A stretch of 64,000 nucleotides of DNA, taken from positions 21,493 to 85,492 of the forward strand of contig JBFLZG010000137.1 of the NCBI GenBank assembly GCA_040756235.1. Reading direction: 5' to 3'. Each line of letters begins with the position of its first letter. Position 1 is the stretch's first letter. Both the position numbers and the translations under genes were made by a program. The notes under the pieces were generated by a model. It saw only the letters and a program-made list of their open reading frames with translations, was not told where the DNA came from and made no database searches. This DNA comes from a bacterium (GTDB lineage Bacteria > Desulfobacterota > DSWW01). Below, in pieces: positions 23,020 through 58,164 of the stretch.

Positions 23020-24174
23020 TCAGTCATAGGTCTTCAAGAGCTCCCGCGCGATGATCATGCGCTGGATTTCGCTGGTGCCGCCGCCCAGCGTGTTGGCAAT
23101 CGAGTCCCGTATGTCTCTTTCGATCGGGTACTCCTTCATGTAGCCGTAACCGCCGTGAATCTGGAAGGCGTCCAGCGCGTCGAGGCGGCTCGTCTCGCCG
23201 AAGAACAGCTTGGCCAAGGAAGCTTCCATCGTGGCCGGCATGCCCCGGGATTTCATCCAGGCGACCTTGTAGAAGAGGGTCTTGTAGATCTCCAGGTGCA
23301 TCCTCATGTTGGCGAGCTTGTGCTGGATCTCCTGAAAGTGCGCGATCGGCTGGCCGAACTGGACGCGGCCCTTGGCGTAGCGCACCGCCTCCTCGAGGCG
23401 CGCCTCGGCCACTCCGACCAGAGCCGGCAGCATGGCCGCCCTTTCCCAGACCAGGGTGCCCATGGCGACCTGGAAGCCCTTGCCGACGGCGCCGAGCACG
23501 TTCTCCTCGGGAACGACGCAGTCCTCGAAGATCAGCTCTCCGGTCGGCGACGAGCGCATGCCCATCTTCTCGAGCTTGCGGCCCCGCAGGAACCCCTCGA
23601 AGGTGCTTTCCACCAGGAAAGCGGTGATGCCCTTGTGTCCGAGGGAGCGGTCCACGGTGGCCAGGACCACGAATAGGTCGCCAATGGGGGCGTTCGTGAT
23701 GAAGGTCTTGGAGCCGTTGAGGACCCAGCGGTCTTTCTTCTTTTCGGCCCGGGTGGCGATGCTCGCGACATCGCTTCCTGCGCCCGGCTCGGTCTGGCCG
23801 TACCCGCCGATCCATTCGCCGGAGGCCAGCCTCGGCAGGTATTTCTCCTTCTGCCGGTCGGTGCCGGCCTCGACGATCGGGATCTCACAGATCACCATGT
23901 GAGCGCCCAGGGAGGTGACGAAGCCGACGTCCCTGGAGCCGTGGCCGAGCCCTTCCATGGTGATGCAGATGGTCAGGGGGTCCAGATCCAGGCCGCCGTA
24001 TTTCTCCGGGACGAGCATTCTCTGGAACCCGAAGTCCGCTGCCTTCGTCCACGCATCCCGATCCAGCTCTTCCTTTGCATCCATCTCGGCAGACCGGGGG
24101 GCGACCACTTCCTTGCCGAACTTGTAGGCCTGATCCCTCATGGCGAGCTGTTCCGATGTCCAGGAAAAATCCAC
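23020..24174 (-). CDS. acyl-CoA dehydrogenase
   Basis: Start trimmed to GTG 24174 (VDFSWTSEQLAMRDQ...), preceded by GGAGGGA; this gives a canonical 384 aa and removes the overlap with the upstream gene. Motifs are GGYGQTEPGAGSD, IHGGYGYMKEYPIERDIRDS and GGTSEIQRMIIAREL. Confidence 0.9.
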   Translation of the reverse strand: MDFSWTSEQLAMRDQAYKFGKEVVAPRSAEMDAKEELDRDAWTKAADFGFQRMLVPEKYGGLDLDPLTICITMEGLGHGSRDVGFVTSLGAHMVICEIPIVEAGTDRQKEKYLPRLASGEWIGGYGQTEPGAGSDVASIATRAEKKKDRWVLNGSKTFITNAPIGDLFVVLATVDRSLGHKGITAFLVESTFEGFLRGRKLEKMGMRSSPTGELIFEDCVVPEENVLGAVGKGFQVAMGTLVWERAAMLPALVGVAEARLEEAVRYAKGRVQFGQPIAHFQEIQHKLANMRMHLEIYKTLFYKVAWMKSRGMPATMEASLAKLFFGETSRLDALDAFQIHGGYGYMKEYPIERDIRDSIANTLGGGTSEIQRMIIARELLKTYD

Positions 24175-24250
24175 GTTCTCGTCCCTCCGTTCCGGGTTGA
24201 GGGGCTCGTCCCCTTCTGCCGCGGATGAATCTTCGGGCGTGCCTGCCCGG

Positions 24251-25762
24251 TCAGAAGATCTCCTTCTCTCTGTCCACGAAATCCGGGATGCTGAGGTAGT
24301 ACTCCTTCGGTTGAGTCCTATCGAGTCCCTCGTAGGTAGCCTTGGCCAAGGCGATCCTCTGCCTGATCCTATGGAGGGCAACGAGCGCCTCTTTCTCCAG
24401 GGCCACGAGCGTCTGGTCCAGGGCCTCGTCTCCCAGCCCCAGTCTCTCCTTGAGGTCCTCCCGGCGCATGTACAGGCCCGGATGCCGCTTGTAGTCCTCG
24501 GCGAGGGCGTCCATCAGCGCTTTCTTGGCCTCCTCCTCGGTCAGGGGGCGTTCCAGAACCGCAGAGCGGGCAGCCTGTTCGTGGGCCTGTGCCTCCTTCT
24601 CCCACTGCTTCCAGACGAGGGTGCGCAGGATTTCGTTGGAGCCTGCACCGATCTGGATGAGCTTGGAATCCCGCATGTGCCTCTCCACGGGGTACTGCGT
24701 GGTGTATCCGTCCCCGCCGTGACATTGCACCGCGTCGAGCGTCGTCTTCATCAGGCTGTCGGTGGCGAAAAGTTTGGCCGCGGAGGCGCCCAGCGGGACG
24801 TCTGCTCCTGAGTCCAGCATGCGGGCCGTGTAGTACGTGAGCGTGTGCCCGAGAAGGATGCCCGTGATCATGTCGCTCCCCATGAACTGGACGGCCGGAA
24901 TCTCGGAGAGGGTCTTGCCAAACTGAACCCGTCTGTGGGTGTAGTTCAGCGTTTCGTTGAGGGAAGAGCGCGCCACGCCGATGGCGCCGGCCGCGACGCC
25001 CAGGCGCTCGATGTTCAGGGCGTCGGCCATGATCTTCCAGCCGTCCCCTTCATCCAGAATCCGGTTCTCTTTGGGGACGCGTACGTCCCGGAACCGCAGC
25101 GCCGCGTGCCGGGACCCGAAGCGACCCATGACGTCGTGGATCGCCTCGACCGAGAAGCCCGGCGTACCCTTTTCCACCAGGAACGCGCTCATGTGACGGT
25201 GCGTGGCGCGCTCCTTGGGGTCATCGCTGGTCTTGCAGTACACGCAGTAAAGGTTGCCCACGCCGCCCACCGTGATGAACCGCTTGCGGCCGTTGATCAC
25301 GTACTCGTCTCCGTCCGGAACAGCCGTGGTCTGCACGGCGGCAGCGTCCGAGCCGCAGAAAGGTTCGGTGATGGCGATGCAGGCGAAGCGTTCCCCTGTC
25401 GCGAGTCCGGGAAGAAATCGCCTTTTCTGCTCCTCGGTACCGAAACGGACGATGGGCGAGTACCCGTAGATGGTGGTTTCGTAGAAGTCCACGGCCACGG
25501 CGGCTCCGCGCGCGATCTCCTCCAGCACGATGCACATGCCTGTCGTTCCGTAACCATTGCCCATCCCCCCGTACTTCTCGGGGATCAGGATGCCGAACCA
25601 CCCCTTTCTGCCGATCTCGCTCATGAACTCCCAGGGGAACTTCTTGGTCCGCTCGATCTCCTTGATGCGGGGAGCGATGACGGCATCGGCAAAGGCGGCT
25701 GCCTCATCTGCCAGTGCTTTCTGCTTCTCGTTCCACCAGAAGTACTTTTCCATCGTGTACAT
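24251..25762 (-). CDS. acyl-CoA dehydrogenase with ~110-aa C-terminal extension
   Basis: Start at ATG 25762 (MYTMEKYFWW), preceded by GAGGGAG. Motifs are CIAITEPFCGSDAA and CHGGDGYTTQYPVERHMRDSKLIQIGAGSNEILR. An extra helical tail follows: ...EEEAKKALMDALAEDYKRHPGLYMRREDLKERLGLGDEALDQTLVALEKEALVALHRI... Confidence 0.85.
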   Translation of the reverse strand: MYTMEKYFWWNEKQKALADEAAAFADAVIAPRIKEIERTKKFPWEFMSEIGRKGWFGILIPEKYGGMGNGYGTTGMCIVLEEIARGAAVAVDFYETTIYGYSPIVRFGTEEQKRRFLPGLATGERFACIAITEPFCGSDAAAVQTTAVPDGDEYVINGRKRFITVGGVGNLYCVYCKTSDDPKERATHRHMSAFLVEKGTPGFSVEAIHDVMGRFGSRHAALRFRDVRVPKENRILDEGDGWKIMADALNIERLGVAAGAIGVARSSLNETLNYTHRRVQFGKTLSEIPAVQFMGSDMITGILLGHTLTYYTARMLDSGADVPLGASAAKLFATDSLMKTTLDAVQCHGGDGYTTQYPVERHMRDSKLIQIGAGSNEILRTLVWKQWEKEAQAHEQAARSAVLERPLTEEEAKKALMDALAEDYKRHPGLYMRREDLKERLGLGDEALDQTLVALEKEALVALHRIRQRIALAKATYEGLDRTQPKEYYLSIPDFVDREKEIF

Positions 25763-25837
25763 GGCTGCTCCCTCTGGGTGCCCGGGCATTCAGGCGATTC
25801 AAGGAAACCGGCTCGTTCTTGCTCCCCCTGGCACGGG

Positions 25838-26644
25838 TCACCTGCCCCGGAACACAGGGGTTCTCTTCTCCCGAAACGCCCGGACTCCCTCCCTGTAATC
25901 CTGCGTGGTGATCAGGAAGGACTGCGCATTCATGACCTCCTCCAGACCGGTCTCTACATCTCCATGCTGAGCGGCCCGGTTGATGAGCTGCTTTCCGAGC
26001 CCCAGGGCCAGCGGGGACTTGCGGGCCATCCTGGCGGCGATCTTGCGGACCTCTTCGGAAAAGGTCTCCGGAGGGAAGACTCGATTCACCAGCCCCTGGC
26101 CGACCGCATCCGCCGCTGTCAGAGGCTCGCCGGTGAGAATGAACTCTTTGGCCCTGGCCAGGCCCATCAGTCGCGGCAGCCGGACGATCGCCCCGGCGTC
26201 GGGCAGGAGACCGAAATCGGTCTGGGGCATCCGCAGGGTCGCGCCTTCCACGGCGTATCTCAGATCGCAGCACAGGGCCAGCTCCACCCCGCCCCCCACG
26301 GCAGGCCCGTTCAGGGCCGCGATGGTCAATTTCTGGATGTCTTCCAGGCCGCCGAACACCCGGTTCCAGCGACGCTGCTGGTTCAGCCGGAACTCCGCCG
26401 GTGTCAGCGTAGAGAGAATCTCCAGGTCCGCACCGGCCGTGAAGTATCTGCCGGCTCCGGTCAGGAGAACCACTCGCACCTCGTCGTCCGCCATGAGCTC
26501 CTGAAGGACGGTCCACAGCTCATGCAGCATCTCGAAGTTGATGGCGTTCAGCTTCTCCGGGCGGTTCAGCCTGATGGTGGCGATCGCTTCGGCCTTCTCG
26601 TACGAGACCGTCTGGAACGGCATCTTTTTGCCCTCTGCGGTCAA
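25838..26644 (-). CDS. enoyl-CoA hydratase/isomerase (crotonase family)
   Basis: IATIRLNRPEKLNA, LTGAGRYFTAGADL and ALNGPAVGGGVELALCCDLR. Confidence 0.9.
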   Translation of the reverse strand: MTAEGKKMPFQTVSYEKAEAIATIRLNRPEKLNAINFEMLHELWTVLQELMADDEVRVVLLTGAGRYFTAGADLEILSTLTPAEFRLNQQRRWNRVFGGLEDIQKLTIAALNGPAVGGGVELALCCDLRYAVEGATLRMPQTDFGLLPDAGAIVRLPRLMGLARAKEFILTGEPLTAADAVGQGLVNRVFPPETFSEEVRKIAARMARKSPLALGLGKQLINRAAQHGDVETGLEEVMNAQSFLITTQDYREGVRAFREKRTPVFRGR

Positions 26645-27411
26645 GCCAGGGCCCCTCCGTCCACCGCCAGGATCTGGCCTGTGATGTAATCAGCGGCGGC
26701 AGAGGCCAGGAAAACCGCCACCCCTTTGATCTCATCTTTCTCGCCGAGCCTCTGCATCGGAATGGTGTTCAGGATCGCTTCGCGGCGGTGCTCGAGAATG
26801 TATCGGGACATGCGGGTGGCAAAGTAGCCGGGCGCGATTCCGTTGACCGTGACATGGTACCGGCACCACTTGCGGGCCAGGTCTCTGGTGAATGCCGCAA
26901 TCGCTCCTTTGCTCGTCGAGTAGGGAACGGAGTCGGCCACCCGCGGGTCCACGGAGGCCAGACCGGCGACAGACAGGATGTTGATGATCTTGCCCGCCCT
27001 CTGCTCGATCATCCGCCTGCCTGCCTCCCGGGAACAGAGGAAGGTGCCGGTGGTGTTGACCGCCAGGGTCTGCTCCCACTTCTCCAGGGAAAACTCCTCG
27101 AGCGGGGCTTCCCAGGCGTAGCCGGCATTGTTGATGAGCACGTCGATGCGATCGAAGTGCTGCAAGGTCTGCTCCACCAGGCCTCTGACTTCCTCCGGCT
27201 CGGACACGTCGCATCTGAGCGCCACGGCCGGCACGCCTATGTCACGGACCTTCTCAGCCGCCGCCTCACACCGTTCCAAGTTGCGGGCGGCGAGAACCAC
27301 GCTCGCGCCGGCCTCGGCAAGTCCCTCGGCCATCATGAGACCCAGTCCGCTGGACCCACCGGTCACGATGGCCACTTTCCCGGACAGGCTGAAAAGCTCG
27401 GGAGCTTTCAT
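26641..27411 (-). CDS. SDR family oxidoreductase (3-hydroxyacyl-CoA/3-oxoacyl reductase-like)
   Basis: TGGSSGLG, NNAG and YSTSK (YxxxK). There is a 4-nt overlap with the downstream hydratase gene. Confidence 0.9.
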   Translation of the reverse strand: MKAPELFSLSGKVAIVTGGSSGLGLMMAEGLAEAGASVVLAARNLERCEAAAEKVRDIGVPAVALRCDVSEPEEVRGLVEQTLQHFDRIDVLINNAGYAWEAPLEEFSLEKWEQTLAVNTTGTFLCSREAGRRMIEQRAGKIINILSVAGLASVDPRVADSVPYSTSKGAIAAFTRDLARKWCRYHVTVNGIAPGYFATRMSRYILEHRREAILNTIPMQRLGEKDEIKGVAVFLASAAADYITGQILAVDGGALA

Positions 27412-27644: not shown

Positions 27645-28997
27645 TCAGCCGGAGGGAAAGAGCCTCTCCATCAGGCTCAGGGCAACGCTGGCTGCGGCCT
27701 GCATGCCCACGCCGCGAGCTTCACGGACCGTATCGCTCGCCATGAAGAGGTTCTGAATACCGGGCGGAACCATGGACGGCCTGTGCCGGCCCGAGATCCC
27801 GGGCGATTCGGAAAGGCCGTATGCCGCCGCGGTGCGGACCTCCCAGCGCGTGGCCTGGGCAAGACCCGGGAGCAGCTCCCGGCCGTCTTCCATGAGATTG
27901 TCCAGGACGTGCCGGACGGCCCTGCGGGTCCGCGCCCACTCAAGCTCGGAGAGGTCGGGCAAGTCCTGGTAACTGCCCTGGATGCACAGGTTGACCTGTG
28001 TCTGTCCGGCCTTGTCCCCGTAGGATTGGTGCTGGAAGAAGATCCCGTAGGTGCCGGTTCTGGGAAGATAGGGGTGCCACCGGAAGAGCCTGATGTCCCA
28101 CAGGGGCTCGTCCACTGCGCACACGATGGTCCACACGTGGCAGATCTTTTTTTCCAGCCTGCGGATCCAGTCCCGGTACCAGATCGGGAATTCGTCCTCG
28201 GAGATCACCTTGAACAGGTCCCAGACGGGCAGCGTGCAGATGACCAAGGGAGCCTTGACGACTTCGGTGGGTCTGATGTGCGAAGGGAACAGACGTTCCC
28301 CGACCTCCAGCTCGACCCCCCGCGCCACCCCCTGCTCGATCACGATGTCGCTCACCGGGGTGCTCAGCCGGATCTCGCCTCCGTGGGTCTCGATGTAATT
28401 CCTCAGAGGCTCGGTGAGCGCTCGAAGCCCGCCCTGCAACGTGCCGCCGATCTGGTTCAACTTGAGGCCGCGCTGAAAGTGCTCCCGGAAGAAATGGATC
28501 ATCTCCCCCAGGGAGAGATCCTCGGTCTTGTTTCCCACGTCGGCGATCTGCGCCAGATAGGTCCAAAGGAGCTCCCACCCCCTCTCTTCGCTCCGGCCGC
28601 CGTACCAGTCCCTCACGGAAACGTCATAGAGCCGCTCGACCTCCTCCCGCGGCATGGTGGCAAACGAGTGCAACACCTCTCTCGCCTCCGCCATGGGGAA
28701 GACGTCCTTCATCGGTCTCCAGGCCTCGTCCTGATAGACTTCGCCGCCCGGATACCGGTGGAGCTTGGGGAAGTCGAGGCCCAGCTTCTCGAAGATCCTC
28801 TCCAGGTGGCCCGCCTCGCTCGGCATGTGAGCCCCGTCGTCCAGCACATGCCTCCGGTGCTCGAGACAGCCCGCCCTGCCGCCCACGCCAGGCCGCTTGT
28901 CGAGCAGCAGGACCTTCTGGCCCCGGCAGGCCAGCAGGGCGCCCGTGCAAAGGCCCGTGAATCCCGCGCCGATCAGGATGGCATCATATTGCGGCAT
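27645..28997 (-). CDS. NAD(P)/FAD-dependent oxidoreductase, CrtI/phytoene-desaturase (amine oxidase) superfamily
   Basis: N-terminal YDAILIGAGFTGLCTGALLACRGQKVLLLDKRPGVGGRAG (GxGxxG...D/E....GG). 450 aa, and the C-terminal LFMASDTV..GVGM fits the family. Confidence 0.75.
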   Translation of the reverse strand: MPQYDAILIGAGFTGLCTGALLACRGQKVLLLDKRPGVGGRAGCLEHRRHVLDDGAHMPSEAGHLERIFEKLGLDFPKLHRYPGGEVYQDEAWRPMKDVFPMAEAREVLHSFATMPREEVERLYDVSVRDWYGGRSEERGWELLWTYLAQIADVGNKTEDLSLGEMIHFFREHFQRGLKLNQIGGTLQGGLRALTEPLRNYIETHGGEIRLSTPVSDIVIEQGVARGVELEVGERLFPSHIRPTEVVKAPLVICTLPVWDLFKVISEDEFPIWYRDWIRRLEKKICHVWTIVCAVDEPLWDIRLFRWHPYLPRTGTYGIFFQHQSYGDKAGQTQVNLCIQGSYQDLPDLSELEWARTRRAVRHVLDNLMEDGRELLPGLAQATRWEVRTAAAYGLSESPGISGRHRPSMVPPGIQNLFMASDTVREARGVGMQAAASVALSLMERLFPSG

Positions 28998-29043: not shown

Positions 29044-29694
29044 CTACGGTTTGAACCGGTCCCCGATTCCGTGAAACACGAACTCGATGACCTCTTTCTT
29101 CCGTTCTTCGATCATTCTTGCGCTGTAGACATCCTTCTTCCACAGCTCCCGGATCGTGGAGGCCGCCACGAAGAACATGGTCGTGCAGCCGAGGATGCTG
29201 GAGATGAGATGGACGGTGTCATTGGGGTGCCTCTCCCGGTCCCGGAGGTTCGAGTAAACGAACCGGTCCGCCATCTCGAAGGTTTCCTTGAGATAGGGCT
29301 TGGAGAGCATTTCGTTTACGTACCGGCCGCCGTCGACGGATTCCCGGAGAAGGATTCTTGCTACGTGATCCTTCTCGGCCAGGATGTCGATGCCCGACGA
29401 GATCAGCTTTCTCAGCTTCGCGGGAGGTGAGGCCTCTTCCATCATGATCGGGAAAAGGCGCCGCTGCAGGCTCACGTAGAAATTCTCGATCACCGTTCTG
29501 TAGAGGTTTTCCTTGCTGCCGTAATGGTAATTGATCTGGGAGGGGGGGACCTGGGCGAGCGCTGCGACTTCGACGATACGGGCCCCCTTGAGCCCTTTTT
29601 CAGCGAATACCTTCTCTGCAGCGGCCAGGATCCGGGCTTCCGTGCTGCCCGGTGGTTTCTGGCCCCTGCGCTGCTTGTGTTTCTGTCTCTTCAT
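29044..29694 (-). CDS. TetR/AcrR family transcriptional regulator (paralog 1)
   Basis: HTH block ILAAAEKVFAEKGLKGARIVEVAALAQVPPSQINYHYGSKENLY. It is about 70% identical by eye to the 33421..34089 product. Confidence 0.9.
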   Translation of the reverse strand: MKRQKHKQRRGQKPPGSTEARILAAAEKVFAEKGLKGARIVEVAALAQVPPSQINYHYGSKENLYRTVIENFYVSLQRRLFPIMMEEASPPAKLRKLISSGIDILAEKDHVARILLRESVDGGRYVNEMLSKPYLKETFEMADRFVYSNLRDRERHPNDTVHLISSILGCTTMFFVAASTIRELWKKDVYSARMIEERKKEVIEFVFHGIGDRFKP

Positions 29695-29745: not shown

Positions 29746-29763
29746 TTCGAATGATTGTTCGAA
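29746..29763. promoter_or_regulatory. palindromic operator candidate TTCGAA-N6-TTCGAA
   Basis: ttcgaatgattgttcgaa, 52 nt upstream of the TetR paralog 1 start, in the 312-bp divergent intergenic region. Confidence 0.45.
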
Positions 29764-29854: not shown

Positions 29855-29905
29855 TTGCATCCACCGACCGAAATGGTTTAATCTCCGATTCGAACGTTTG
29901 TTCGA
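29855..29905 (+). promoter_or_regulatory. candidate sigma70 promoter (TTGCAT-16-TTTAAT) plus operator TCGAAC-GTTT-GTTCGA
   Basis: The -35 is at 29855-29860 and the -10 at 29877-29882. A perfect 6+4+6 inverted repeat at 29890-29905 lies immediately downstream, about 100 nt before ATG 30007. Confidence 0.45.
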
Positions 29906-30006
29906 TATCCGAGAGCCGGGTGGAGACGGACACGAGAGGGGGAGGTGCGCGCCCACCGTGTGAGATCCTGCGGACTCCGGGTGGGAAAACGAAAGGAGAT
30001 GCCCGG

Positions 30007-32366: not shown

Positions 32367-32394
32367 GAGCCCCGGGAGAGAGGGAGGTGGGAGG

Positions 32395-34089: not shown

Positions 34090-34162
34090 GAGAAATCCCC
34101 CGCGCCCCCGAGGAGGGCAAAGCCCCTCGTCTCGAAGGAACCGCCAGTTGGGTCCAAACAGA

Positions 34163-34178
34163 TTGAACGTTTGTTCAA
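34163..34178. promoter_or_regulatory. operator candidate TTGAAC-GTTT-GTTCAA
   Basis: Perfect 6+4+6 inverted repeat 74 nt upstream of the TetR paralog 2 start. Its core GAACGTTTGTTC is identical to the site at 29892-29903. Confidence 0.5.
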
Positions 34179-49747: not shown

Positions 49748-49954
49748 ATGTGGAAGAAGATCTGGAGGAACCGGGTGGAGTTCTATCCCTATTTTGCCAT
49801 TTATCTCTTCTGGTTCATGGGTGCCTTCCTGGGATCGCTCGGGATCCAGAACCGGCCGGGGATCGTCGCCCTGGGCGTGGTGACCGTCCCTTCGCTCACG
49901 CTGATCACGATCGCAGCGGTCCGCACGTACAGAGGGCTCCCCGGGTCTGCCTGA
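49748..49954 (+). CDS. small 2-TM membrane protein (68 aa)
   Basis: ATG 49748 after CAGGAG. MWKKIWRNRVEFYPYFAIYLFWFMGAFLGSLGI...GIVALGVVTVPSLTLITIAAV. It fills the gap between paralogs 1 and 2. Confidence 0.45.
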   Translation: MWKKIWRNRVEFYPYFAIYLFWFMGAFLGSLGIQNRPGIVALGVVTVPSLTLITIAAVRTYRGLPGSA

Positions 49955-52140: not shown

Positions 52141-53007
52141 ATGAGACTGGATTCCTGGGTAATGGAGCTGTTCTTCCTGCCCCTCGTGTACCTGGTCATG
52201 CGCGAGGCGCGGATCGTTTACGGCCGGGAGCGGGCCAGCATCTTTTTCTGGGGCTCGATCCTGTGGACCGGAACGATCGAGAACCTGGCGGTCATGTTGG
52301 GGGCCTACGACTACTTCGCCTACGCCAACTACTATTCCTTCGGTGGCAGGGTGATCCAGGGCTACGGCGGCTGGGTCGCCTGGATTCTGTTCGTCCCGGT
52401 CTCGATCTGCCTGGGCTGGTTCTTCCTGAGCTTTCCGGCCCTGATGGTCTCCATCCGCCTGCTGGGTGACCGGGCCAACATCTGGCTCAAGGCCGCCTTC
52501 GCGGGGCTCATCTTGGTGAGCTACGACGTGTTCTTCGACCCCCTGGCCGTGGTCAACCAGTGGTGGCGCTGGACCACGCCGGCCTTGTACATCCGCGGGG
52601 TCCCCTTGAGCAACTGGATCGGCTGGTTCTTCCTGCTGTTCTTTTTCGGCGCCCTCTACGAGCGCACCGTGCTGCAGCAGAAGGGGGTGAGAGGGCTTGT
52701 CTGGCTGGAGAGAATGCTGTTCCGGGCCGACACCACGGACCTTTCCGGCATGGACACCTGGAGAATCGGGAGGATCTTCTACTTCCGCCTGGCGGCCTAT
52801 CTGCCGGTGTTCTTCGCCGTCTCCATGATCGCCTCGCTGCTCACGACGACCCTCTGGAACAATCGGTGGGGTCCCTACCACAACGTCTTTCCGGCCACGG
52901 CCATTCACGAAAAGTACACGATTCCTGCAGCGGGACAGGCCGGCTCGCCCCGGCAGGAGCCGGCCATCCTCTCGGTCGGAGAGCAGCCATCGGGAGCAGA
53001 CAGATGA
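52141..53007 (+). CDS. CruF/DUF422-like polytopic membrane protein, paralog 4
   Basis: GTIENLAVMLGAYDYFAYANYY... and YDVFFDPLAVVNQWWRWTTPALYIRGVPLSNWIGWFFLLFFF. Confidence 0.65.
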   Translation: MRLDSWVMELFFLPLVYLVMREARIVYGRERASIFFWGSILWTGTIENLAVMLGAYDYFAYANYYSFGGRVIQGYGGWVAWILFVPVSICLGWFFLSFPALMVSIRLLGDRANIWLKAAFAGLILVSYDVFFDPLAVVNQWWRWTTPALYIRGVPLSNWIGWFFLLFFFGALYERTVLQQKGVRGLVWLERMLFRADTTDLSGMDTWRIGRIFYFRLAAYLPVFFAVSMIASLLTTTLWNNRWGPYHNVFPATAIHEKYTIPAAGQAGSPRQEPAILSVGEQPSGADR

Positions 53008-53252
53008 ATCATGCGGACCCTGTTGCGGATGCGGATTCGGCCGGCGCCGACAGAGCCCGGCGGAGAATGGCTTTCTGGCCTCTGCTCATGTACCTGATCG
53101 GGCTCGTCTGGGCGTACCTGAGCGTCCCTTTCGAGGGCCACACCTCCGCCCCGGAGAACGTCGTCTACAGCGTGCTGGTGGCAGGCCCCTTTTGGATCGC
53201 CATGCTCGTTTTCCTGGTCGTCGTCCGGCGGGATGGACGTGCGAAACCGTGA
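53004..53252 (+). CDS. small 2-TM membrane protein (82 aa)
   Basis: ATG 53004 overlaps the paralog 4 stop (ATGA). MAFWPLLMYLIGLVWAYLSV ... VVYSVLVAGPFWIAMLVFLVVV. Confidence 0.45.
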   Translation: MNHADPVADADSAGADRARRRMAFWPLLMYLIGLVWAYLSVPFEGHTSAPENVVYSVLVAGPFWIAMLVFLVVVRRDGRAKP

Positions 53253-53264
53253 TCTCCGGAGGGG

Positions 53265-54341
53265 ATGCAGATGGCCGAAAAGATCCATATTCTCGGGGCA
53301 GGCTTGTCGGGGATGGTTGCGGCGATCAACCTCGCTCGGCAGGGCCGGGAGGTTCTGGTGCTGGAGGGGGCGAAGGGCCTGGGCGGCATGGGCGGGCTGC
53401 ACCCCTCGGTGCACACGACCCCGATCGATCCGGCCTGGATGAGCCGGGAGATCGGTATCGACGTGACCCCGGTCTTCCACAGACCTAAAGGGTTCATGCT
53501 CGGCCTCGGCGACAAGACCTTCAAGCTCGACCCCGGCCCCATGCATTCCGTGGAGCGGGGCGCAAGGAAGACCTCGATCGACACCTTGCTCTACGAGGAG
53601 GCCCAAGCGGCCGGGGTCGCGTTCCAGTTCGGGGTCTACCTCAAGGACCTGCGCCAGCTTCCGAAGGGCTCGATCATCGCCACCGGACTCCACCACGAGA
53701 TGTACGACTACCTGGCCATACCCTCCGAAGTCCCGCGCGGCTTTGCCTCCACCCGCAAGATCGACTGGGAGAACTGGTGCGCGGGCAGTATGGCCTCTTA
53801 CACGGACGACTACTTTTACGCCAACTGCGTCAACCAGCTCATGTACGGGCTCCTGTTCGGCCGCAGGAAGGTGACGGTGGAGGGGCTGGAGGCCTGCAAG
53901 CTGGACATCCGGAAGAAGTTCGGCCTGGAGCTCGAGAACTGGGAGTACTTCACGGTGCGGGTGCCCACGGCCTCTGCCACCAACCCGAGGCTGTTCCAGG
54001 ACGGCTACATCCTGGCCGGCACCCTGGCCGGCGCCATGGACCCGATCGCCCTGTTCGGCATCCATGGCGCGCTGCTCTCGGGCAAGGTCGCGGCGACGGC
54101 GGTGGAGAGCCCGGATCAAGGCCTCGCGGAGTTCCGCAGGATCACGCGCTACTACCGGATCGCGTACTACGTGAAGCAGTTTCAGAAGAGCCTGCCGCCC
54201 AACCTGGCCGCGATGGAGTTCTCCCTCCGTCACCCGCGTCTGTTCTACCCGATGATGGCGATCTCCTCCGTCTCCGTACCGGGGTACCGTCAAGGCAACT
54301 GGAACTACGAGGTCATGAAGAAGTTGGAGAGGGTGCAGTAG
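53265..54341 (+). CDS. FAD-dependent oxidoreductase, geranylgeranyl-reductase-like
   Basis: KIHILGAGLSGMVAAINLARQGREVLVLE (Rossmann GxGxxG...E). LAGTLAGAMDPIALFGIHGALLSGKVAATA resembles the GDAAG.VDP.TG.GI..A..SG..AA block of the GGR/FixC family, with GT in place of GD. Confidence 0.55.
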   Translation: MQMAEKIHILGAGLSGMVAAINLARQGREVLVLEGAKGLGGMGGLHPSVHTTPIDPAWMSREIGIDVTPVFHRPKGFMLGLGDKTFKLDPGPMHSVERGARKTSIDTLLYEEAQAAGVAFQFGVYLKDLRQLPKGSIIATGLHHEMYDYLAIPSEVPRGFASTRKIDWENWCAGSMASYTDDYFYANCVNQLMYGLLFGRRKVTVEGLEACKLDIRKKFGLELENWEYFTVRVPTASATNPRLFQDGYILAGTLAGAMDPIALFGIHGALLSGKVAATAVESPDQGLAEFRRITRYYRIAYYVKQFQKSLPPNLAAMEFSLRHPRLFYPMMAISSVSVPGYRQGNWNYEVMKKLERVQ

Positions 54342-54423: not shown

Positions 54424-57084
54424 ATGGAGCACTTCAGGCTATTCATCGATGGCGAGTTCGTCGAGGCCGAAAGCGGCGCCAGGCGCCCGTCCCTGGACCC
54501 GGGCAATGGCCAGCCCGTCGCCACCGTGGCCTGGGCCGGCGTGAGAGACGCCGATCGGGCCGTAATGGCCGCGCGGCGCGCTTTCGACAAAGGCGACTGG
54601 AGCGGTCTCGCTCCCAAGGACAGATCCCGATTCCTCTTCGACCTCGCGGACCGGCTGGGGAAGATGGCGCTGCGCATCATCCAGTACGAGTGCCAGGACT
54701 CCGGCGCCACGGTACGCCGCATCGGCGGGGAAGTGCTCGTGACGTCGGTGGTGATCCGGGACCTGGCCTGGTACGCGGCCGAGAAATTCGCCTGGCGGGA
54801 AGAGGTTCGTCTGAGCAGCTTCATTCCGACCCCGTGCCGGGACTACGTCGTTCGAGAACCCGTCGGCGTCTGCGCCGGCATCGCCCCCTGGAACGCTCCC
54901 TTCTCCATGGCGATCCTGAAGATCGTTCCCGCCGTCATCATGGGCAATGCGGTGGTTCTGAAGACCGCCTCCGACACGCCGATCAGCGCGCTCCTGTTGG
55001 CCGAGGCGGTGGCCGCCAGCGGCATACCGAAGGGAGTGGTCAACGTGATCACGGGTCCCGGTCCGGAAGTCGGCGAGGCCCTCTGCCGCCACCCGGGGGT
55101 CGACAGGATCAGCTTCACCGGCAGCACCGAGGTGGGGCGCAGGATCCTCGAGATGGGCGCCGACTCCGTCAAGAGAGTGACCGTGGAGCTGGGCGGCAAG
55201 TCGGCCGGCATCGTGCTGCCGGACGCAGACCTGGACATCGCCGTCGATGGTTCCGTCTTCGGCATCTTCCTCCACTCGGGCCAGGTCTGTGCCGCAGCCA
55301 GCCGGCTGCTCGTGCACCGGGACGTCTATGAGCCGTTCGTCGAACGGTTGAAGGCGCGCATTCCGGCCCTGAAGCTCGGCTACCAGCTGAACCCCGAAGT
55401 GCACATGGGACCTCTCATCTCCGAACGGCAAAGGGAGCGGGTCGAGCGGTATGTCGAGATCGGCAGGCGGGAAGGGGCGCGGCTCGTCTGCGGCGGCAGG
55501 CGTCCCGAGGGGCAGGAGTTCAGCAGCGGATTCTATTACGAACCCACGGTGTTCGCGGATGTCGACAATCGAATGACCATCGCCCGGGAGGAAATCTTCG
55601 GCCCCGTGGCCTGCGTCATACCCTTCGCAAGCGACGAGGAGGCGCTTCGGTTCGCCAACGACTCGGATTACGGGCTGGTCGGCGCGGTCTGGAGCCGTGA
55701 CACCGCACGGGCCGAACGCATCGCCGCGCGCATTCGGGCCGGCACGGTCTGGGTCAACGACTGGAACGCCTTCAACCAGTTCACGCCCTTCGGCGGATAC
55801 AAGCGGAGCGGCCTGGGACGGGAATTCGGACACGAGGGGCTCGCCGCGTACACCGAGGTCAAGCATCTGCACGTCTCCGGGGTGGCGGACAAGGAGAGCC
55901 GCGTCACGTATCAGCTCATGTTCGACTACCCGGCGAGCAAGGCCTTCCAGTTTCAGAGCCCCACCAGGATCGACGTCGGACCGGGAGCGGTTCAGAACAT
56001 CGGCAGCGAGATGTTCCAACTGGGCTGCCGACGGGCGGTCATCTTGTCTGACAAAGGGGTCCGGGACGCCGGCCTCGTGGACGTCGTCCAAAAAGCCGTG
56101 GGCGACTCGTGCGCGGGAGTTTTCGATGGTTGCGAGGAGGACCCCAGCTTCGAATCGGTCGACCGGGCCGCGGAGTTCTGCCGAAAGGCAGGCGCCGACT
56201 GTCTGATCAGCCTCGGCGGCGGCAGCTGCATCGACACCGCCAAATCGGTGTCGGTGATTCTTACGGTGGGAGGCAGGGCTCTCGATCATATCTTTGCCAG
56301 CCGCCTCGAGGGGCCGGTCACGCCGCACATCGCGGTCCCCACCACCGCGGGGACCGGTAGCGAGGTGACCTGCGGAGCGATCCTCACCCACAGGAAGCTG
56401 GGCCGCAAGCTGGGCTTCATGGACAAGGCCGTTTTTCCCCGGGCCGCGATCCTGGACCCGGTGCTCACCCGAACGCTTCCGCGGGGCCTTACCGTCGGCA
56501 GCGGGATGGACGCCCTCTCCCACGCCATCGAGGCGATCCTCTCCAAGCTCAGGAACCCGGTGGCAGAAGCCCACGGCCTCCACGCGATTCGCCTGATCGT
56601 GGAGAACCTTCCGCGGGCCGCGGAGCACCCGGACGATCTCGACGCGCGACTCAACATGCAGATTGCCTCCTCCATGGCCGGCATCGCGGTGTGCTCTGCA
56701 GGGGCGGGCGTGGGACACGCCATGGCGCACACGCTCGGGGCCTTGTATCACGTGCATCACGGAACCGGCTGCGGTATCTGCCTGCCCGTGGCCATGCGCT
56801 ACAATAAGGAGGTTTGCGCCCCGGAGCTGGCCCGTGTCGCCCAGGCCCTGGGCGTCGATACGCGCGGCCTCACAGAGAACGAAGCTGCGGATTCCGCTGT
56901 AACCGAGGTCGAGGGATTCATGCAACGTATCGGCCACCCGATCCGGATGAGCGAGGTGGGGGTGGACGAGACGGACTACGTGGTCCTGGCCCTGGAATGC
57001 ATGCTCGAGTTCTGCTGCCTCCTCAACGCCCGGCCGGTCACCAACCCCCTGGAGGTGGCTCACATGTTCCAGGCGGTGGCCTGA
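54424..57084 (+). CDS. fusion of a classical NAD(P)-dependent aldehyde dehydrogenase and an iron-containing alcohol dehydrogenase
   Basis: The N-terminal ~480 aa carry both ALDH signatures (VELGGKSA; FLHSGQVCAAASR) plus EEIFGPV. The C-terminal ~390 aa are Fe-ADH (GGGSCIDTAKS; HAMAHTLGALYHVHHGTGCGICLP). Confidence 0.85.
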   Translation: MEHFRLFIDGEFVEAESGARRPSLDPGNGQPVATVAWAGVRDADRAVMAARRAFDKGDWSGLAPKDRSRFLFDLADRLGKMALRIIQYECQDSGATVRRIGGEVLVTSVVIRDLAWYAAEKFAWREEVRLSSFIPTPCRDYVVREPVGVCAGIAPWNAPFSMAILKIVPAVIMGNAVVLKTASDTPISALLLAEAVAASGIPKGVVNVITGPGPEVGEALCRHPGVDRISFTGSTEVGRRILEMGADSVKRVTVELGGKSAGIVLPDADLDIAVDGSVFGIFLHSGQVCAAASRLLVHRDVYEPFVERLKARIPALKLGYQLNPEVHMGPLISERQRERVERYVEIGRREGARLVCGGRRPEGQEFSSGFYYEPTVFADVDNRMTIAREEIFGPVACVIPFASDEEALRFANDSDYGLVGAVWSRDTARAERIAARIRAGTVWVNDWNAFNQFTPFGGYKRSGLGREFGHEGLAAYTEVKHLHVSGVADKESRVTYQLMFDYPASKAFQFQSPTRIDVGPGAVQNIGSEMFQLGCRRAVILSDKGVRDAGLVDVVQKAVGDSCAGVFDGCEEDPSFESVDRAAEFCRKAGADCLISLGGGSCIDTAKSVSVILTVGGRALDHIFASRLEGPVTPHIAVPTTAGTGSEVTCGAILTHRKLGRKLGFMDKAVFPRAAILDPVLTRTLPRGLTVGSGMDALSHAIEAILSKLRNPVAEAHGLHAIRLIVENLPRAAEHPDDLDARLNMQIASSMAGIAVCSAGAGVGHAMAHTLGALYHVHHGTGCGICLPVAMRYNKEVCAPELARVAQALGVDTRGLTENEAADSAVTEVEGFMQRIGHPIRMSEVGVDETDYVVLALECMLEFCCLLNARPVTNPLEVAHMFQAVA

Positions 57085-57142
57085 TGAGAGCCCGCTGAAG
57101 AACAGGCACCGTGGCAGGCGAGCGGAAGCAGCGGATCGGCTT

Positions 57143-57161
57143 CTTCAACAGCCTGTTGAAG
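57143..57161 (+). promoter_or_regulatory. perfect 9-bp-arm palindrome CTTCAACAG-c-CTGTTGAAG abutting the RBS of the CrtC-like gene
   Basis: It ends 13 nt before ATG 57175. Its 3' arm runs into GGGGAG, the likely Shine-Dalgarno. Confidence 0.4.
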
Positions 57162-57174
57162 GGGAGCAAGCGTC

Positions 57175-58164
57175 ATGGCCCACGAGAAGACCGCGCAGAT
57201 CATCAAAGACCCGCCCGGCGTGGATGAAACGGCCCATCCCTTCGAGCCGGTCGAGTGGTGGTACGCCAATGCGCTGCTCGATGCGCCCGGCTCCCCCATC
57301 GACGGCTGCGCTCTGGTCGGGACATTCACGATCCAGAGGCAAATGGCCGAGTATTGCCATGGCCTGATCGTTTCGCCCGAAAAAGGGTCCTTGGCAGATT
57401 TTTCAGGCTACGAGCTGCCACCCGGGACCATTTCGAGCAGCCAGGAGGAGCTGCGCGTGGGCTGCCGCAAGAACTACCTGCGCGGCCGCTACCCCCGATG
57501 GAGGCTGCACCTGGAGGGAGAGGACTCGGGGCGTCTCTGCAGGGCCGATCTCGAATACCAGGCCGGGGTGGACGCGGACCGCCGCACCTACGACATTCCC
57601 CCTTCCTACATGCATCACTACGTCGTCTATCGGAGCCGGGTCCGGGGAGCGATCACCCTGGGAAAGGAGAGCTGGGAGGTCCGGGGAACGGGCTACTACG
57701 AGCATTTCTTCGGTTTCCTGAATCCGCTCGAGTCGAGCGGGTGGATCTGGTACTGGTGTCCCGCGGCCGGACCGCACCGGCTGGCCTTCAACCTGGGGGT
57801 GAGCGCCTTCCGGGGCGGCCGCAAGCCCCTGAGCTTCGTGTTTCTTACGGAAGACGGCAAGACCTTCGCCGACTTCACGTCGGCGTCGCTCGAGGTGCTG
57901 GAAGAGAGGAATCTCGGGGGGATCGTCTACCCGCACAAGATCCGTGTGACCGAAAGAAGCGAACAAGGGAAGCTCGACGCGGTGGTCACCCGGATGGAGG
58001 CCCATTATCACAGGGTGAACCGCAGCCCCCTGGCCACGTCCATATTCGTCACCGGCTTCTCGCTTCTGGAGGGGAGGGCCGCCTGGATGGGCCGGGGCTA
58101 CGACCTCACGGGCCGCGCCTTCGGCAGCGTCATGCGGGTGGAGCTGCCCGAGACGAACCCGTAG
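57175..58164 (+). CDS. CrtC/AttH-like lipocalin-fold hydratase (carotenoid 1,2-hydratase superfamily)
   Basis: HPFEPVEWWYANALLDAPG near the N-terminus and GTGYYEHFFG mid-protein are the two blocks I associate with the hydroxyneurosporene synthase (CrtC)/AttH family. 329 aa, with no signal peptide. Confidence 0.5.
   Translation: MAHEKTAQIIKDPPGVDETAHPFEPVEWWYANALLDAPGSPIDGCALVGTFTIQRQMAEYCHGLIVSPEKGSLADFSGYELPPGTISSSQEELRVGCRKNYLRGRYPRWRLHLEGEDSGRLCRADLEYQAGVDADRRTYDIPPSYMHHYVVYRSRVRGAITLGKESWEVRGTGYYEHFFGFLNPLESSGWIWYWCPAAGPHRLAFNLGVSAFRGGRKPLSFVFLTEDGKTFADFTSASLEVLEERNLGGIVYPHKIRVTERSEQGKLDAVVTRMEAHYHRVNRSPLATSIFVTGFSLLEGRAAWMGRGYDLTGRAFGSVMRVELPETNP

Follow-up and report, generated by a model that had tools for sequence, protein, structure and literature searches.

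The region between 23.0 and 58.2 kb of the window (the whole stretch of DNA analyzed here, 64 kb of contig JBFLZG010000137.1) appears to encode a single, TetR-controlled catabolic gene set in an uncultured, sulfate-reducer-type host of the strictly anaerobic Thermodesulfobacteriota type. Its substrate would be hydrophobic and methyl-branched and is most probably an acyclic isoprenoid chain; judging from the gene sequences, this interpretation is favored with modest confidence. The most probable candidates are chains with trisubstituted or isopropylidene double bonds, that is, squalene-, carotenoid-, polyprenyl- or sterol-side-chain-like compounds. The original prediction for this region had proposed an isoprenoid substrate, and the present evidence leans the same way because the cluster encodes CruF-family membrane proteins, a soluble protein, denoted g29, with the fold of carotenoid and kievitone hydratases, a pair of CrtI-like flavoproteins, a transport pair resembling AmeCD, and an SCP2-type thiolase with its DUF35 partner, and because a g29 homolog in Nocardia and a second type of anaerobic locus (L052, below), with CrtC- and CruF-like proteins next to acyl-CoA enzymes, occur in compatible contexts; the substrate itself is deduced from these relationships. 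Pfam scans of the window reveal no phytoene/squalene synthase, prenyltransferase or cyclase, which argues for a catabolic rather than a biosynthetic role. No oxygenase, biotin carboxylase or Acx-type carboxylase was detected in these scans either, so that the absence of a carboxylase noted in the original prediction is borne out.

Genes were called by third-position G+C and then scanned against Pfam, with start codons adjusted according to ribosome-binding sites and the length of the copies in databases. They form three transcription units. The first, on the minus strand, extends from 29694 down to 23020 and consists of the genes for TetRa, the flavoprotein CrtIa, a short-chain dehydrogenase (SDRa), an enoyl-CoA hydratase (ECHa) and two acyl-CoA dehydrogenases (ACADb and ACADa). 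The second, on the plus strand (30007-33201), encodes CrtIb, SDRb and ECHb. The third, also on the plus strand, follows the minus-strand TetRb gene and spans about 24 kb from DUF35 (34367) to g29 (58164), the largest gap being about 320 bases. In this unit, DUF35 is followed by the SCP2-type thiolase, a PaaK-like ligase, two DUF2148 proteins, a double flavoprotein (VAO2), an Fe-S protein with CCG domains, a Ycf48/BNR propeller, a 365-aa Fe-S protein, an MMPL/HAE3 transporter, four CruF-family proteins interleaved with two small proteins containing two transmembrane (TM) segments, a geranylgeranyl (GG)-reductase-like flavoprotein (FADgg), a fusion of an aldehyde dehydrogenase (ALDH) with an iron-dependent alcohol dehydrogenase (Fe-ADH), and g29. 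Pfam searches recovered all the gene families that had been assigned to this region, although that inventory had left out the DUF2148 pair, the 365-aa Fe-S protein, FADgg and the two small membrane proteins. The assigned borders are sensible as well, with unrelated genes on both sides (exopolysaccharide genes below about 18.4 kb, and Fpg and others above about 59.7 kb). The region is a gene cluster and shows no sign of being a mobile island in the strict sense because tRNA and Rfam scans of the 64-kb window returned zero matches and the base composition (about 64% G+C) is even, without a compositional break.

The two regulators, TetRa (29044-29694, minus strand) and TetRb (33421-34089, minus strand), both with the Pfam domain TetR_N, are 70% identical and hence are indeed the paralogs that they had been taken for. 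Each of the two divergent intergenic regions, between TetRa and CrtIb and between TetRb and DUF35, contains two operator-like 18-bp near-palindromes (29746-29763 and 29889-29906 in the former, 34162-34179 and 34320-34337 in the latter). With up to 3 mismatches allowed, the pattern TTCGAAYNNTTGTTCGAA has four sites, all within these two regions and none elsewhere in the window, compared to 0.36 expected from shuffled sequence (the search yielded 7 rows, given that palindromic sites score on both strands and one overlapping weak match was included). The four palindromes are likely to be operators common to both TetR paralogs and, along with the high identity of the regulators, support a single regulon at the sequence level. 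TetRb is retained, divergent from DUF35, in L003, L008, L011, L023 and additional related loci (loci retrieved from other genomes and metagenomes are denoted L, and collected proteins P, followed by a number). Among the related loci, a search for TTCGAAYNNTTGTTCGAA with up to 2 mismatches found it next to a TetRb homolog in L023 only, whereas the sites in L005 and L065 are without a mapped TetR; the operator motif is not recognizably conserved in the more distant loci.

Linkage of the gene families in other genomes

Related loci were collected with three main anchors, namely VAO2 (one genome per species, 12 loci), CrtIb, and the CruF-like proteins (metagenomes, 79 loci), and in addition with g29. 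All 12 VAO2-anchored loci come from metagenome-assembled genomes (MAGs) labeled Thermodesulfobacteriota, Syntrophobacteria or 'bacterium'. Exact-sequence lookups of the window thiolase and of P0053, the closest relative of VAO2, returned no record. Three of these (L003, L008 and L011, at 64-66% identity) share a block in which FADgg and TetRb, both on the minus strand, are followed by DUF35, thiolase, PaaK, VAO2, the CCG protein and then CruF-like genes with their TM partners. The full arrangement DUF422-tm68-DUF422 ... DUF422d-tm82, where DUF422 stands for the CruF-like genes and tm68 and tm82 for the small 2-TM proteins, is present in L008 and L011, and only DUF422d-tm82 is found in L003; SDRb was mapped in L003 and L008. 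To the left of this block, all three loci contain housekeeping genes.

The CrtIb anchor identifies four different contexts. In L013, the order is CCG, a single VAO, PaaK, thiolase, CruF-like, TetR, two DUF2148 genes, CruF-like, CrtIb and ECHb. In L014, CrtIb is preceded by CruF-like, Ycf48, MMPL, DUF1302, DUF1329, tm68 and another CruF-like gene. The third context, L017/L018, combines aldehyde:ferredoxin oxidoreductase, TetR, DUF1302, DUF1329 and ECH with CrtIa-CrtIb, an SDR, three acetone-carboxylase-like genes, SDRa, ACADb and ECHa. In L017, the three acetone-carboxylase-like genes (Hydantoinase_A, Hydantoinase_B and Acetone_carb_G; 12627-17525) are inserted between CrtIa-CrtIb-SDR and SDRa-ACADb-ECHa, and the aldehyde:ferredoxin oxidoreductase is encoded upstream together with a small ferredoxin (1064-3162); these genes would fit methyl-ketone or aldehyde intermediates and so give a hint of such compounds in a related system. 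Finally, L019 encodes CCG, VAO, DUF35, an FADgg-like protein, CrtIb, a third CrtI-like protein, SDRb, ACADb, ECHa, CrtIa and SDRa.

Among the long (at least 8 kb) CruF-anchored loci with a DUF422 protein at least 67% identical to g23, all seven contain other genes of the cluster. L023, L024, L030 and L097 encompass SDRb, TetRb, DUF35, thiolase, PaaK, DUF2148a (90% identity), DUF2148b, VAO2, tm68, CruF-like and FADgg genes. In L053, CrtIb and ECHb are accompanied by TetRb, Ycf48, MMPL, DUF1302, DUF1329 and CruF-like genes, and L087 combines the 365-aa Fe-S protein, two DUF2148 genes, TetRb, CruF-like, thiolase, PaaK, VAO2, CCG and FADgg. The two ends of the cluster are tied together by L100, which contains the only close homolog of g29 (80% identity), flanked by the ALDH-ADH fusion (84%) on one side and ACADb (90%) on the other, that is, a right-end and a left-end gene of the window cluster. 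The same families thus co-occur in shuffled orders, and therefore the blocks are not independently distributed; this is the pattern typical of functional linkage, in agreement with the original view of the region as one functional set.

Predicted hydratases, oxidoreductases and chain-shortening enzymes

Four polytopic membrane proteins of the CruF family (PF04240/DUF422; 48756-49718, 50001-50981, 51005-51976 and 52141-53007, plus strand) were identified by Pfam searches, paralogy and hydropathy. Three of these score 106.5, 48.3 and 36.2 bits against PF04240, for which the cutoff is 25; the fourth has no Pfam match, yet is 54% identical to one of the passing copies, so that all four previously annotated DUF422 proteins belong to this family. 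Each copy contains 4-5 hydrophobic segments. The two 2-TM proteins interleaved with them, tm68 (68 aa, 49748-49954) and tm82 (82 aa, 53004-53252; both plus strand, recognized by hydropathy), may be subunits of the CruF-like membrane enzymes: the orders DUF422-tm68-DUF422 and DUF422d-tm82 are retained in L008, L011, L033 and L053, and tm68 shows 67-76% identity across many loci. A 440-aa, Cys-rich protein that has no Pfam family and contains two PCGSGGRL motifs is encoded in L011 (16630-17949), L008 (18322-19647) and L003 (15421-16743), between SDRb (in L011, the second CruF-like gene) and DUF422d. The window has no homolog of this protein, and the matching stretch is occupied by the third CruF-like gene (51005-51976).

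The last gene of the cluster, g29 (57175-58164, plus strand), encodes a soluble all-beta protein with the AttH/CrtC/kievitone-hydratase fold, as indicated by AlphaFold and Foldseek. No Pfam family, including CrtC (PF07143), was matched at E<=5, and no PDB sequence at E<=10. Only 14 homologs were found, mostly from Nocardia, one of which is named 'AttH domain-containing' in UniRef. The AlphaFold model built from these 14 homologs (pLDDT 86, pTM 0.84) shows the two-lobed all-beta architecture of AttH, and the structural matches are AttH (2ich; E=1.6e-10, TM-score 0.63), kievitone hydratase (7a0t; TM-score 0.65) and, more weakly, 25-phosphosteroid lyase (9g4c; TM-score 0.50). The earlier label 'CrtC-like' thus holds at the level of the fold but not at that of the sequence, where the PF07143 profile is not reached. 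Carotenoid 1,2-hydratases are known from two families, CruF and CrtC (PMC6013536). Both hydratase families that act on isopropylidene ends accordingly have relatives in the cluster, namely the CruF-like proteins and g29.

The contexts of g29- and CrtC-related genes elsewhere are compatible with this assignment. In Nocardia nova SH22a (L102; CP006850.1, 3913507-3934604), the g29 homolog heads a TetR-flanked operon (genes at 9261-17534) that also encodes an ALDH, an SDR, a P450, a protein of the MpaB/Lcp family and an acyl-CoA ligase. This family, PF09995, is that of the rubber oxygenases and the farnesyl-chain-cleaving MpaB. By analogy, the Nocardia operon may be an aerobic counterpart for isoprenoid chains, in which the chain would be cleaved or oxidized, converted to an acid and activated. 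About a dozen Nocardia species have a g29 homolog. A different type of anaerobic cluster is represented by L052 (85-20900), in which a protein passing the CrtC N-terminal profile is encoded next to five tandem CruF-like genes and small TM partners. A thiolase and a 619-aa ACAD flank this array on one side, and two 2-hydroxyglutaryl-CoA-dehydratase-like subunits (HgdAB-like) with a BcrAD-type activase on the other; a GMC oxidoreductase is encoded as well. Similar arrays are found in L044, L046 and L048.

CrtIa (27645-28997, minus strand; 450 aa, Pfam Amino_oxidase/NAD_binding_8) and CrtIb (30007-31521, plus strand; 504 aa, Pfam) are flavoproteins of the CrtI superfamily that show 24% identity to each other and are encoded divergently in the window, with TetRa between them; in L017/L018, the CrtIa ortholog (65%) directly adjoins the CrtIb ortholog. 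The CrtIb family is small, with 36 proteins at E<=1e-10 in a collection of 5.8 billion proteins. Every NCBIfam match of CrtIa is far below the cutoff, the CrtI-like set yields weak CrtD/HpnE matches, and the only PDB matches are uncharacterized archaeal CrtI-like proteins. The CtmAB limonene dehydrogenase and the delta-24 steroid desaturase are heteromers of CrtI-like subunits with 27% and 26% identity, respectively, that oxidize allylic positions of terpenoids independently of O2 (PMC4109377, PMC11061730). With two distantly related subunits that are encoded side by side in L017/L018, the CrtIa/CrtIb pair resembles these heteromers at the level of sequence and gene order. In CtmAB and the delta-24 desaturase, the His of the N-terminal consensus G-F-L/R-X-N/S-T/L-H-A binds FMN covalently (PMC11061730). 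Both CrtIa and CrtIb contain a D/E-x-G-x-H motif (LDDGAH and FEGGWH, respectively), the His of which is conserved across the CrtIb family, in a register relative to CtmAB that is not fixed. One of the collected proteins, P0099 (866 aa, on a 2.9-kb JGI contig), consists of a CrtI-like N-terminus joined to the N-terminal half of a VAO2 homolog through an Arg/Pro/Gly-rich stretch. A genuine CrtI-VAO fusion was rejected, such a low-complexity middle being typical of a frame error; P0099 is probably such an error uniting two adjacent genes and, as such, shows the adjacency of CrtI-like and VAO2 genes in another genome.

VAO2 (39477-42425, plus strand) is a 982-aa protein with two fused FAD_binding_4 modules detected by Pfam. 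Its AlphaFold model (pLDDT 82.7) gives a tie in the fold search between D-2-hydroxyacid dehydrogenase and the VAO/eugenol oxidase/p-cresol methylhydroxylase (PCMH) group. The N-terminal half aligns with the mouse D-2-hydroxyacid dehydrogenase LDHD over residues 121-470 and lacks the His at the metal motif, so that it may be a non-catalytic, GlcE-like module. The C-terminal half matches PCMH, vanillyl-alcohol and eugenol oxidases, and 4-ethylphenol oxidase in sequence searches of the PDB, over the FAD-binding domain only, with a cap that is not alignable. In the FAD-binding part of this half, an invariant T-G-F-N-H-G-G motif (residues ~549-555 of 982) coincides with the position where some enzymes of the VAO family bear the covalent FAD-binding His, making covalent flavinylation a possibility. 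Several MAGs, namely those of L001, L002, L008, L010 and L011, encode a second VAO2 paralog (47-53% identity; loci L004-L007 and L009). A paralog of the PaaK-like ligase (38-45%) is encoded nearby in L004-L006, as is an SDR in L004 and L005. These paralogous sets suggest a family of related pathways with different substrates.

In nearly all related loci, VAO2 is followed by the gene for an Fe-S protein with two CCG domains (42563-43801, plus strand; Pfam CCG, 116 bits), which is HdrD/GlcF/TfrB-like and scores 210 bits, below the cutoff, against the NCBIfam model TfrB. Upstream of VAO2, two putative Fe-S proteins, DUF2148a (37802-38605) and DUF2148b (38616-39443; both plus strand, with Pfam DUF2148 and FeS domains), have orthologs, with up to 90% identity, in the same position in L023, L024, L030 and L097, and homologs in L013, L051 and L087. 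The 365-aa protein (44901-45998, plus strand) combines a Cys-rich segment with a C-terminal 2x[4Fe-4S] ferredoxin domain recognized by Pfam Fer4 families; its orthologs in L005 (68%) and L087 (47%) are encoded next to DUF2148 and PaaK-like genes. FADgg (53265-54341, plus strand; 358 aa) is distantly similar to GG reductases, with a Pfam match to the Rossmann part only and an NCBIfam GG-red-SF match (E=2e-8) below the cutoff; a sequence search of the PDB returned nothing useful. Orthologs of FADgg at 63-79% identity are present in the core loci.

The remaining enzymes make up a beta-oxidation set. ACADa (23020-24174, minus strand; about 384 aa, Pfam Acyl-CoA_dh_N/M/1), the refined start of which is a GTG at 24174 with a ribosome-binding site, is 33% identical to ACADb (24251-25789, minus strand; 512 aa, Pfam). 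The best PDB matches of ACADb are Bcd-type ACADs, over residues 22-392 only, and the protein carries a C-terminal extension of about 115 aa past the region alignable to solved ACADs; the length of 503-512 aa recurs in L017, L019 and L100. ACADb orthologs (68-90%) are encoded next to ECHa/SDRa/CrtIa in L017 and L019 and next to the ALDH-ADH fusion and g29 in L100. The crotonase-type ECHa (25838-26644, minus strand; Pfam ECH_1, 197.7 bits) and SDRa (26641-27411, minus strand; Pfam adh_short), a candidate 3-hydroxyacyl-CoA dehydrogenase, have orthologs at 65-68% and 73-74% identity, respectively, in L017 and L019. Orthologs of SDRb (31521-32366, plus strand; Pfam adh_short) at 68-76% identity are found in the core loci, and those of the crotonase ECHb (32395-33201, plus strand; Pfam ECH_1) at 76-78% follow CrtIb in L013 and L053.

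The product of 34923-36086 (plus strand; Pfam and PDB searches) is, by sequence, a true thiolase that is closest to SCP2-thiolase type 1 (6hsj, 292 bits) and to the benzoylsuccinyl-CoA thiolase BbsB (7pxp, 263 bits). It contains the Thiolase_C_1 domain and intact catalytic residues (the Cys nucleophile in NACASS, HDCF, and GHP in GHPIGATG), and the adjacent gene encodes the DUF35 partner (34367-34840, plus strand), with a ChsH2-type zinc ribbon and OB fold (Pfam zf-ChsH2 and OB_ChsH2_C). Thiolases of the SCP2/SCPx type cleave 2-methyl-branched 3-oxoacyl-CoAs. The adenylate-forming CoA ligase of the PaaK family (36410-37789, plus strand; Pfam AMP-binding_C_2) has PaaK (4r1l, 114 bits) and 2-hydroxyisobutyryl-CoA synthetase (6hdw, 85 bits) as solved relatives. 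The 886-aa ALDH+Fe-ADH fusion (54424-57084, plus strand; Pfam Aldedh, 541 bits, and Fe-ADH) aligns with BdhE (PDB 9ldl_C) over residues 1-883 at 965 bits. By this end-to-end match, the fusion noted in the original prediction is BdhE and not AdhE. The BdhE family was described in 2025, with no assigned physiological substrate and a proposed AdhE-like role in fermentation (PMC12454647).

The Ycf48/BNR propeller (43864-44844, plus strand; Pfam PSII_BNR), with orthologs in L014 and L053, and the 787-aa HAE3-type RND/MMPL transporter (46321-48684, plus strand; Pfam MMPL and Sterol-sensing, 152 bits against NCBIfam HAE3), which contains a sterol-sensing-type domain, match AmeC and AmeD in family and size. 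AmeABCD of Castellaniella defragrans is a four-gene system that is induced by monoterpenes and confers tolerance, with an AmeD of 787 aa (PMC6394551). Pfam scans of the window detected neither DUF1302 nor DUF1329, so that, of this system, the window encodes just the BNR protein and the pump; all four AmeABCD-type components occur together in L014 and L053.

Outside the cluster, a carboxylesterase of the alpha/beta-hydrolase fold (58216-59700, minus strand; Pfam BD-FAE and COesterase) adjoins g29 in convergent orientation; it is not retained beside the gene set in other loci, and its membership is unsupported. On the other side, positions 1-18400 of the window are occupied by an unrelated exopolysaccharide cluster. 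It encodes two sulfotransferases, which suggest that the polysaccharide is sulfated, along with four GT4 glycosyltransferases, a Wzy-like protein, a flippase, a sugar transferase, a FemAB-like acyltransferase, a Wza-like exporter and a beta-barrel porin. Between the two clusters, a 751-aa protein with a BNR_4 match (19614-21869, minus strand) is encoded next to a 320-aa protein without a family, and no link of the former to either cluster was established.

A possible route and the alternatives

If the substrate is an isoprenoid chain, the AmeCD-like RND system would handle it at the envelope, and the double bonds would be hydrated or dehydrated without O2 by the four CruF-like membrane proteins and the soluble g29. 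The CrtIa/CrtIb pair could then oxidize or desaturate the allylic position, in the manner of limonene dehydrogenase or the delta-24 desaturase, with the GG-reductase-like protein and perhaps VAO2 also processing double bonds or allylic positions, and the electrons could exit via the CCG, DUF2148 and ferredoxin-type Fe-S proteins. BdhE would convert the primary alcohol to the acid, the PaaK-like ligase would form the CoA ester, and the two ACADs, two crotonases, two SDRs and the SCP2-type thiolase with DUF35 would shorten the chain. Attack at the isopropylidene end would place methyl groups at C2 and C4, such that the first CoA ester would be a 2-methyl-2-enoyl-CoA. Hydration, oxidation and thiolysis of the latter would yield propionyl-CoA and a 4-methyl-4-enoyl-CoA, from which one more cycle would release acetyl-CoA and regenerate the 2-methyl-2-enoyl-CoA, with propionyl-CoA and acetyl-CoA alternating thereafter. 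On chemical grounds, a route of this kind would encounter no beta-methyl block and thus would not need an Atu-type carboxylase. The setting of BdhE, which in the window and in L100 belongs to a catabolic cluster, suggests that it oxidizes a pathway intermediate from alcohol to acid.

A more far-reaching and quite tentative interpretation, which we hold to be rather doubtful as a whole, is that strictly anaerobic Thermodesulfobacteriota possess an undescribed route that mineralizes isoprenoid hydrocarbons and alcohols, such as squalene, acyclic carotenoids and polyprenols, without Mo or O2. The core of this route would consist of the CruF-type hydratases with their TM partners, VAO2 with its HdrD-like subunit, DUF2148, the PaaK-type ligase and the SCP2-thiolase/DUF35 pair, and would represent a new means of activating unactivated trisubstituted double bonds; the CrtI-like heteromer and BdhE would feed the beta-oxidation that alternates between propionyl-CoA and acetyl-CoA. 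In a sister system of the L052 type, CrtC/CruF-like hydratases would be coupled to radical enzymes of the 2-hydroxyacyl-CoA-dehydratase type. Searches of the literature found no described anaerobic squalene or isoprenoid gene cluster of such composition.

Several observations weigh against a single gene set for isoprenoid degradation. The substrate is derived from family membership, and most of the matches are far below the curated family cutoffs. The published flavinylation consensus of CtmAB and the delta-24 desaturase has no verbatim match in CrtIa or CrtIb in a regular-expression search. AmeABCD is characterized as an efflux and tolerance system, which speaks against the uptake role originally proposed for the AmeC/AmeD-like pair. 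The cluster contains neither an electron-transferring flavoprotein nor a membrane anchor for the CCG protein; because of the latter, coupling of this HdrD-type protein to the quinone pool, as originally envisaged, is a conjecture. With respect to linkage, VAO2-CCG is found without the other families in L002, L010 and L012, BdhE-g29 accompanies the rest of the set only in the window and L100, and 25 of the 36 long DUF422-anchored loci, which contain more distant CruF-like genes, lack any other cluster family at a level of at least 40% identity, some of these distant genes standing among housekeeping genes. Lastly, the FAD domain of VAO2 is equally close to PCMH and to D-2-hydroxyacid dehydrogenases, which, in combination with a PaaK-type ligase, would also fit an aromatic side-chain substrate.

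This last point leads to the possibility, unlikely in our estimate, that the substrate of the same coherent set is an aromatic compound with a prenyl or alkyl substituent, such as an isoprenoid quinone or quinol, a tocopherol-like compound, a prenylated flavonoid or a long-chain alkylphenol. A side chain para to a phenol would then undergo VAO-type oxidation, as with PCMH and 4-ethylphenol methylenehydroxylase. The prenyl group would be the target of the hydratases, and an arylalkanoate, once activated by the ligase, would be cleaved by the thiolase with DUF35 in the manner of BbsAB. The best PDB sequence matches of the C-terminal half of VAO2 point in this direction, but the alignment is confined to the FAD-binding domain and D-2-hydroxyacid dehydrogenase ties in the fold search. 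Similarly, the ligase belongs to the phenylacetate-CoA ligase family, which, however, includes 2-hydroxyisobutyryl-CoA synthetase, and the thiolase, despite its 263 bits against BbsB, scores higher against SCP2-thiolase. Such a substrate would also suit g29, given that one of its structural matches, kievitone hydratase, adds water to the prenyl group of an isoflavonoid; the cluster, however, encodes no cytochrome c subunit, no benzoyl-CoA reductase or any other enzyme of ring reduction or ring cleavage, and no phenol decarboxylase or carboxylase.

It is similarly improbable that the set degrades a non-isoprenoid hydrophobic substrate, for instance long-chain alkenes or alkenols, wax or steryl esters, or branched fatty acids, and that the resemblances to carotenoid enzymes are too remote to be informative. 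Such an interpretation could invoke the scores of the CrtI-family and GG-reductase matches, all of which fall far short of the curated cutoffs, the lack of a sequence-profile match for g29, the generic nature of the ACADs, ECHs and SDRs, the adjoining esterase, and the requirement of DUF1302/DUF1329/BNR/RND systems for growth of Pseudomonas on fatty esters. It leaves unexplained, however, the co-occurrence, here and in separate loci, of several unrelated families whose characterized members all act on isoprenoid double bonds; the Nocardia context of g29 is hard to attribute to chance, and the pairing of a branched-chain, SCP2-type thiolase with DUF35 is one that straight chains do not need.

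Biosynthesis or remodeling of the cell's own isoprenoid-type membrane lipid (carotenoid- or hopanoid-like, or polyprenyl-derived) for export to the outer membrane, with the CrtI-, CruF-, CrtC- and GG-reductase-like proteins as tailoring enzymes and the HpnN-like MMPL protein as the exporter, is less likely still: the characterized members of these four families are indeed biosynthetic tailoring enzymes, those of HAE3 are hopanoid exporters (HpnN), AmeABCD behaves as an exporter, some CruF-like homologs stand alone among housekeeping genes, and BdhE has no assigned physiological substrate, but the cluster encodes, by Pfam, no synthase, prenyltransferase, cyclase, glycosyltransferase or methyltransferase, half of its genes form a complete beta-oxidation set with a CoA ligase under TetR repressors in the usual layout of a catabolic operon, related loci add aldehyde:ferredoxin oxidoreductase and acetone-carboxylase-like (L017) or 2-hydroxyacyl-CoA-dehydratase-like (L052) genes, and the Nocardia homolog of g29 is accompanied by a CoA ligase and a member of the rubber-cleaving oxygenase family.

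Degradation of an isoprenoid chain thus being the preferred interpretation, its implications can be outlined. A large pool of buried carbon consists of isoprenoids, including squalene, carotenoids, polyprenols, sterol and hopanoid side chains, and archaeal lipids, which are also used as biomarkers in geochemistry. Gene-level knowledge of their decay in sulfidic and methanogenic sediments is essentially nil, the characterized O2-independent routes coming from the denitrifiers Castellaniella and Sterolibacterium. Testable marker genes for anaerobic isoprenoid decay would become available from a gene set that is conserved in uncultured Thermodesulfobacteriota, and several orphan families (DUF2148, BdhE, the CruF-like proteins of anaerobes that make no carotenoids, and the AttH-fold proteins common to Nocardia) would gain a physiological context. 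The set could also yield cofactor-free hydratases and O2-independent, C-H-oxidizing flavoenzymes for biocatalysis.

Comparison with known systems

Individual components of the cluster have counterparts in several characterized systems. Three of the four membrane proteins pass PF04240, and g29 has the AttH/kievitone-hydratase fold; the characterized CruF, CrtC and kievitone hydratases convert an isopropylidene or prenyl double bond to a tertiary alcohol by addition of water, without a cofactor (PMC6013536). In contrast to the known CruF/CrtC systems, the window copies are multiple and encoded next to beta-oxidation genes, with no carotenoid synthase nearby, and, unlike CrtC, g29 reaches no CrtC sequence profile; the substrate and the direction of the reaction of the window proteins are predictions. 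The two FAD_binding_4 modules and the Fe-S protein with two CCG domains are reminiscent of GlcDEF and of D-lactate/D-2-hydroxyacid dehydrogenases with a CCG subunit. In the window, however, the two modules are fused in a single 982-aa chain, the N-terminal half lacks the His metal motif (GH-GDGN-H), the C-terminal half is at least as close to VAO/PCMH, and the neighboring genes encode a CoA ligase, a thiolase and CruF-like proteins. The similarity to BdhE (PDB 9LDL) extends from end to end (965 bits), both proteins having 886 aa and an identical order of domains, whereas the genomic setting differs in that the genes in the window and L100 are embedded in a catabolic cluster next to a CrtC-fold protein (PMC12454647).

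With the Atu/Liu system for the utilization of acyclic terpenes in Pseudomonas, the cluster shares a regulated ACAD/ECH/SDR set for methyl-branched terpenoid acids. It differs in lacking, by Pfam scans of the window, a geranyl-CoA/methylcrotonyl-CoA carboxylase and an HMG-CoA-lyase-type enzyme, and therefore the route must avoid the beta-methyl block in a manner other than that of Atu/Liu. An Atu/Liu pathway and a steroid-ring pathway were both rejected for the window, the defining genes being missing in each case.

The monoterpene island of Castellaniella defragrans 65Phen (ctmAB, geoABC, mrc, ameABCD; PMC4109377, PMC6394551) is similar in more respects. It combines, as is proposed for the window, O2-independent terpenoid catabolism in one genomic block, with two distant CrtI/COG1233 flavoproteins (27% identical, compared to 24% in the window), an alcohol-aldehyde-acid sequence followed by a CoA ligase and a crotonase/SDR/ACAD set, and a 787-aa HAE3 RND transporter with a COG4447 BNR partner, to which relatives of the window cluster also add DUF1302 and DUF1329. 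The differences are considerable. Castellaniella is a denitrifier, whereas the host of the window is of the strictly anaerobic Thermodesulfobacteriota type. The linalool dehydratase-isomerase, the BadI-like ring-cleavage enzyme and the CtmEF ferredoxin/reductase described there are absent from the window, and CrtIa and CrtIb are shorter than CtmAB (450 and 504 aa, compared to about 565 aa) and have no verbatim flavinylation consensus. Conversely, the window adds CruF-like, CrtC-fold, double-VAO/CCG, DUF2148, BdhE and DUF35/SCP2-thiolase components, none of which is reported for the island in the passages of these two papers that were consulted.

Sterol side-chain oxidation in Sterolibacterium denitrificans, which is also O2-independent and involves S25DH/S26DH, 25-hydroxysteroid kinase, 25-phosphosteroid lyase and the delta-24 desaturase (PMC11061730, PMC8449060), shares the logic of the proposed route: a subterminal alkene on an isoprenoid chain, water-derived hydroxylation of the allylic terminal methyl group, conversion to the acid and CoA ester, and beta-oxidation with release of propionyl-CoA. 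At the protein level, CrtI-like flavoproteins, heteromeric in Sterolibacterium, are involved in both, and the 25-phosphosteroid lyase is among the structural matches of g29 (TM-score 0.50). The window has no molybdenum hydroxylase, kinase or steroid-ring genes and instead encodes hydratase-type proteins of the CruF-like and CrtC-fold kinds.

Altogether, the Castellaniella island and the Sterolibacterium pathway, both from denitrifiers, are the closest known systems, and most of the conserved core of the window cluster, namely the PaaK-like ligase, VAO2 with the CCG protein, DUF2148 and the CruF-like proteins, is without a known counterpart; it is in this core, the least understood part of the system, that new chemistry may reside.

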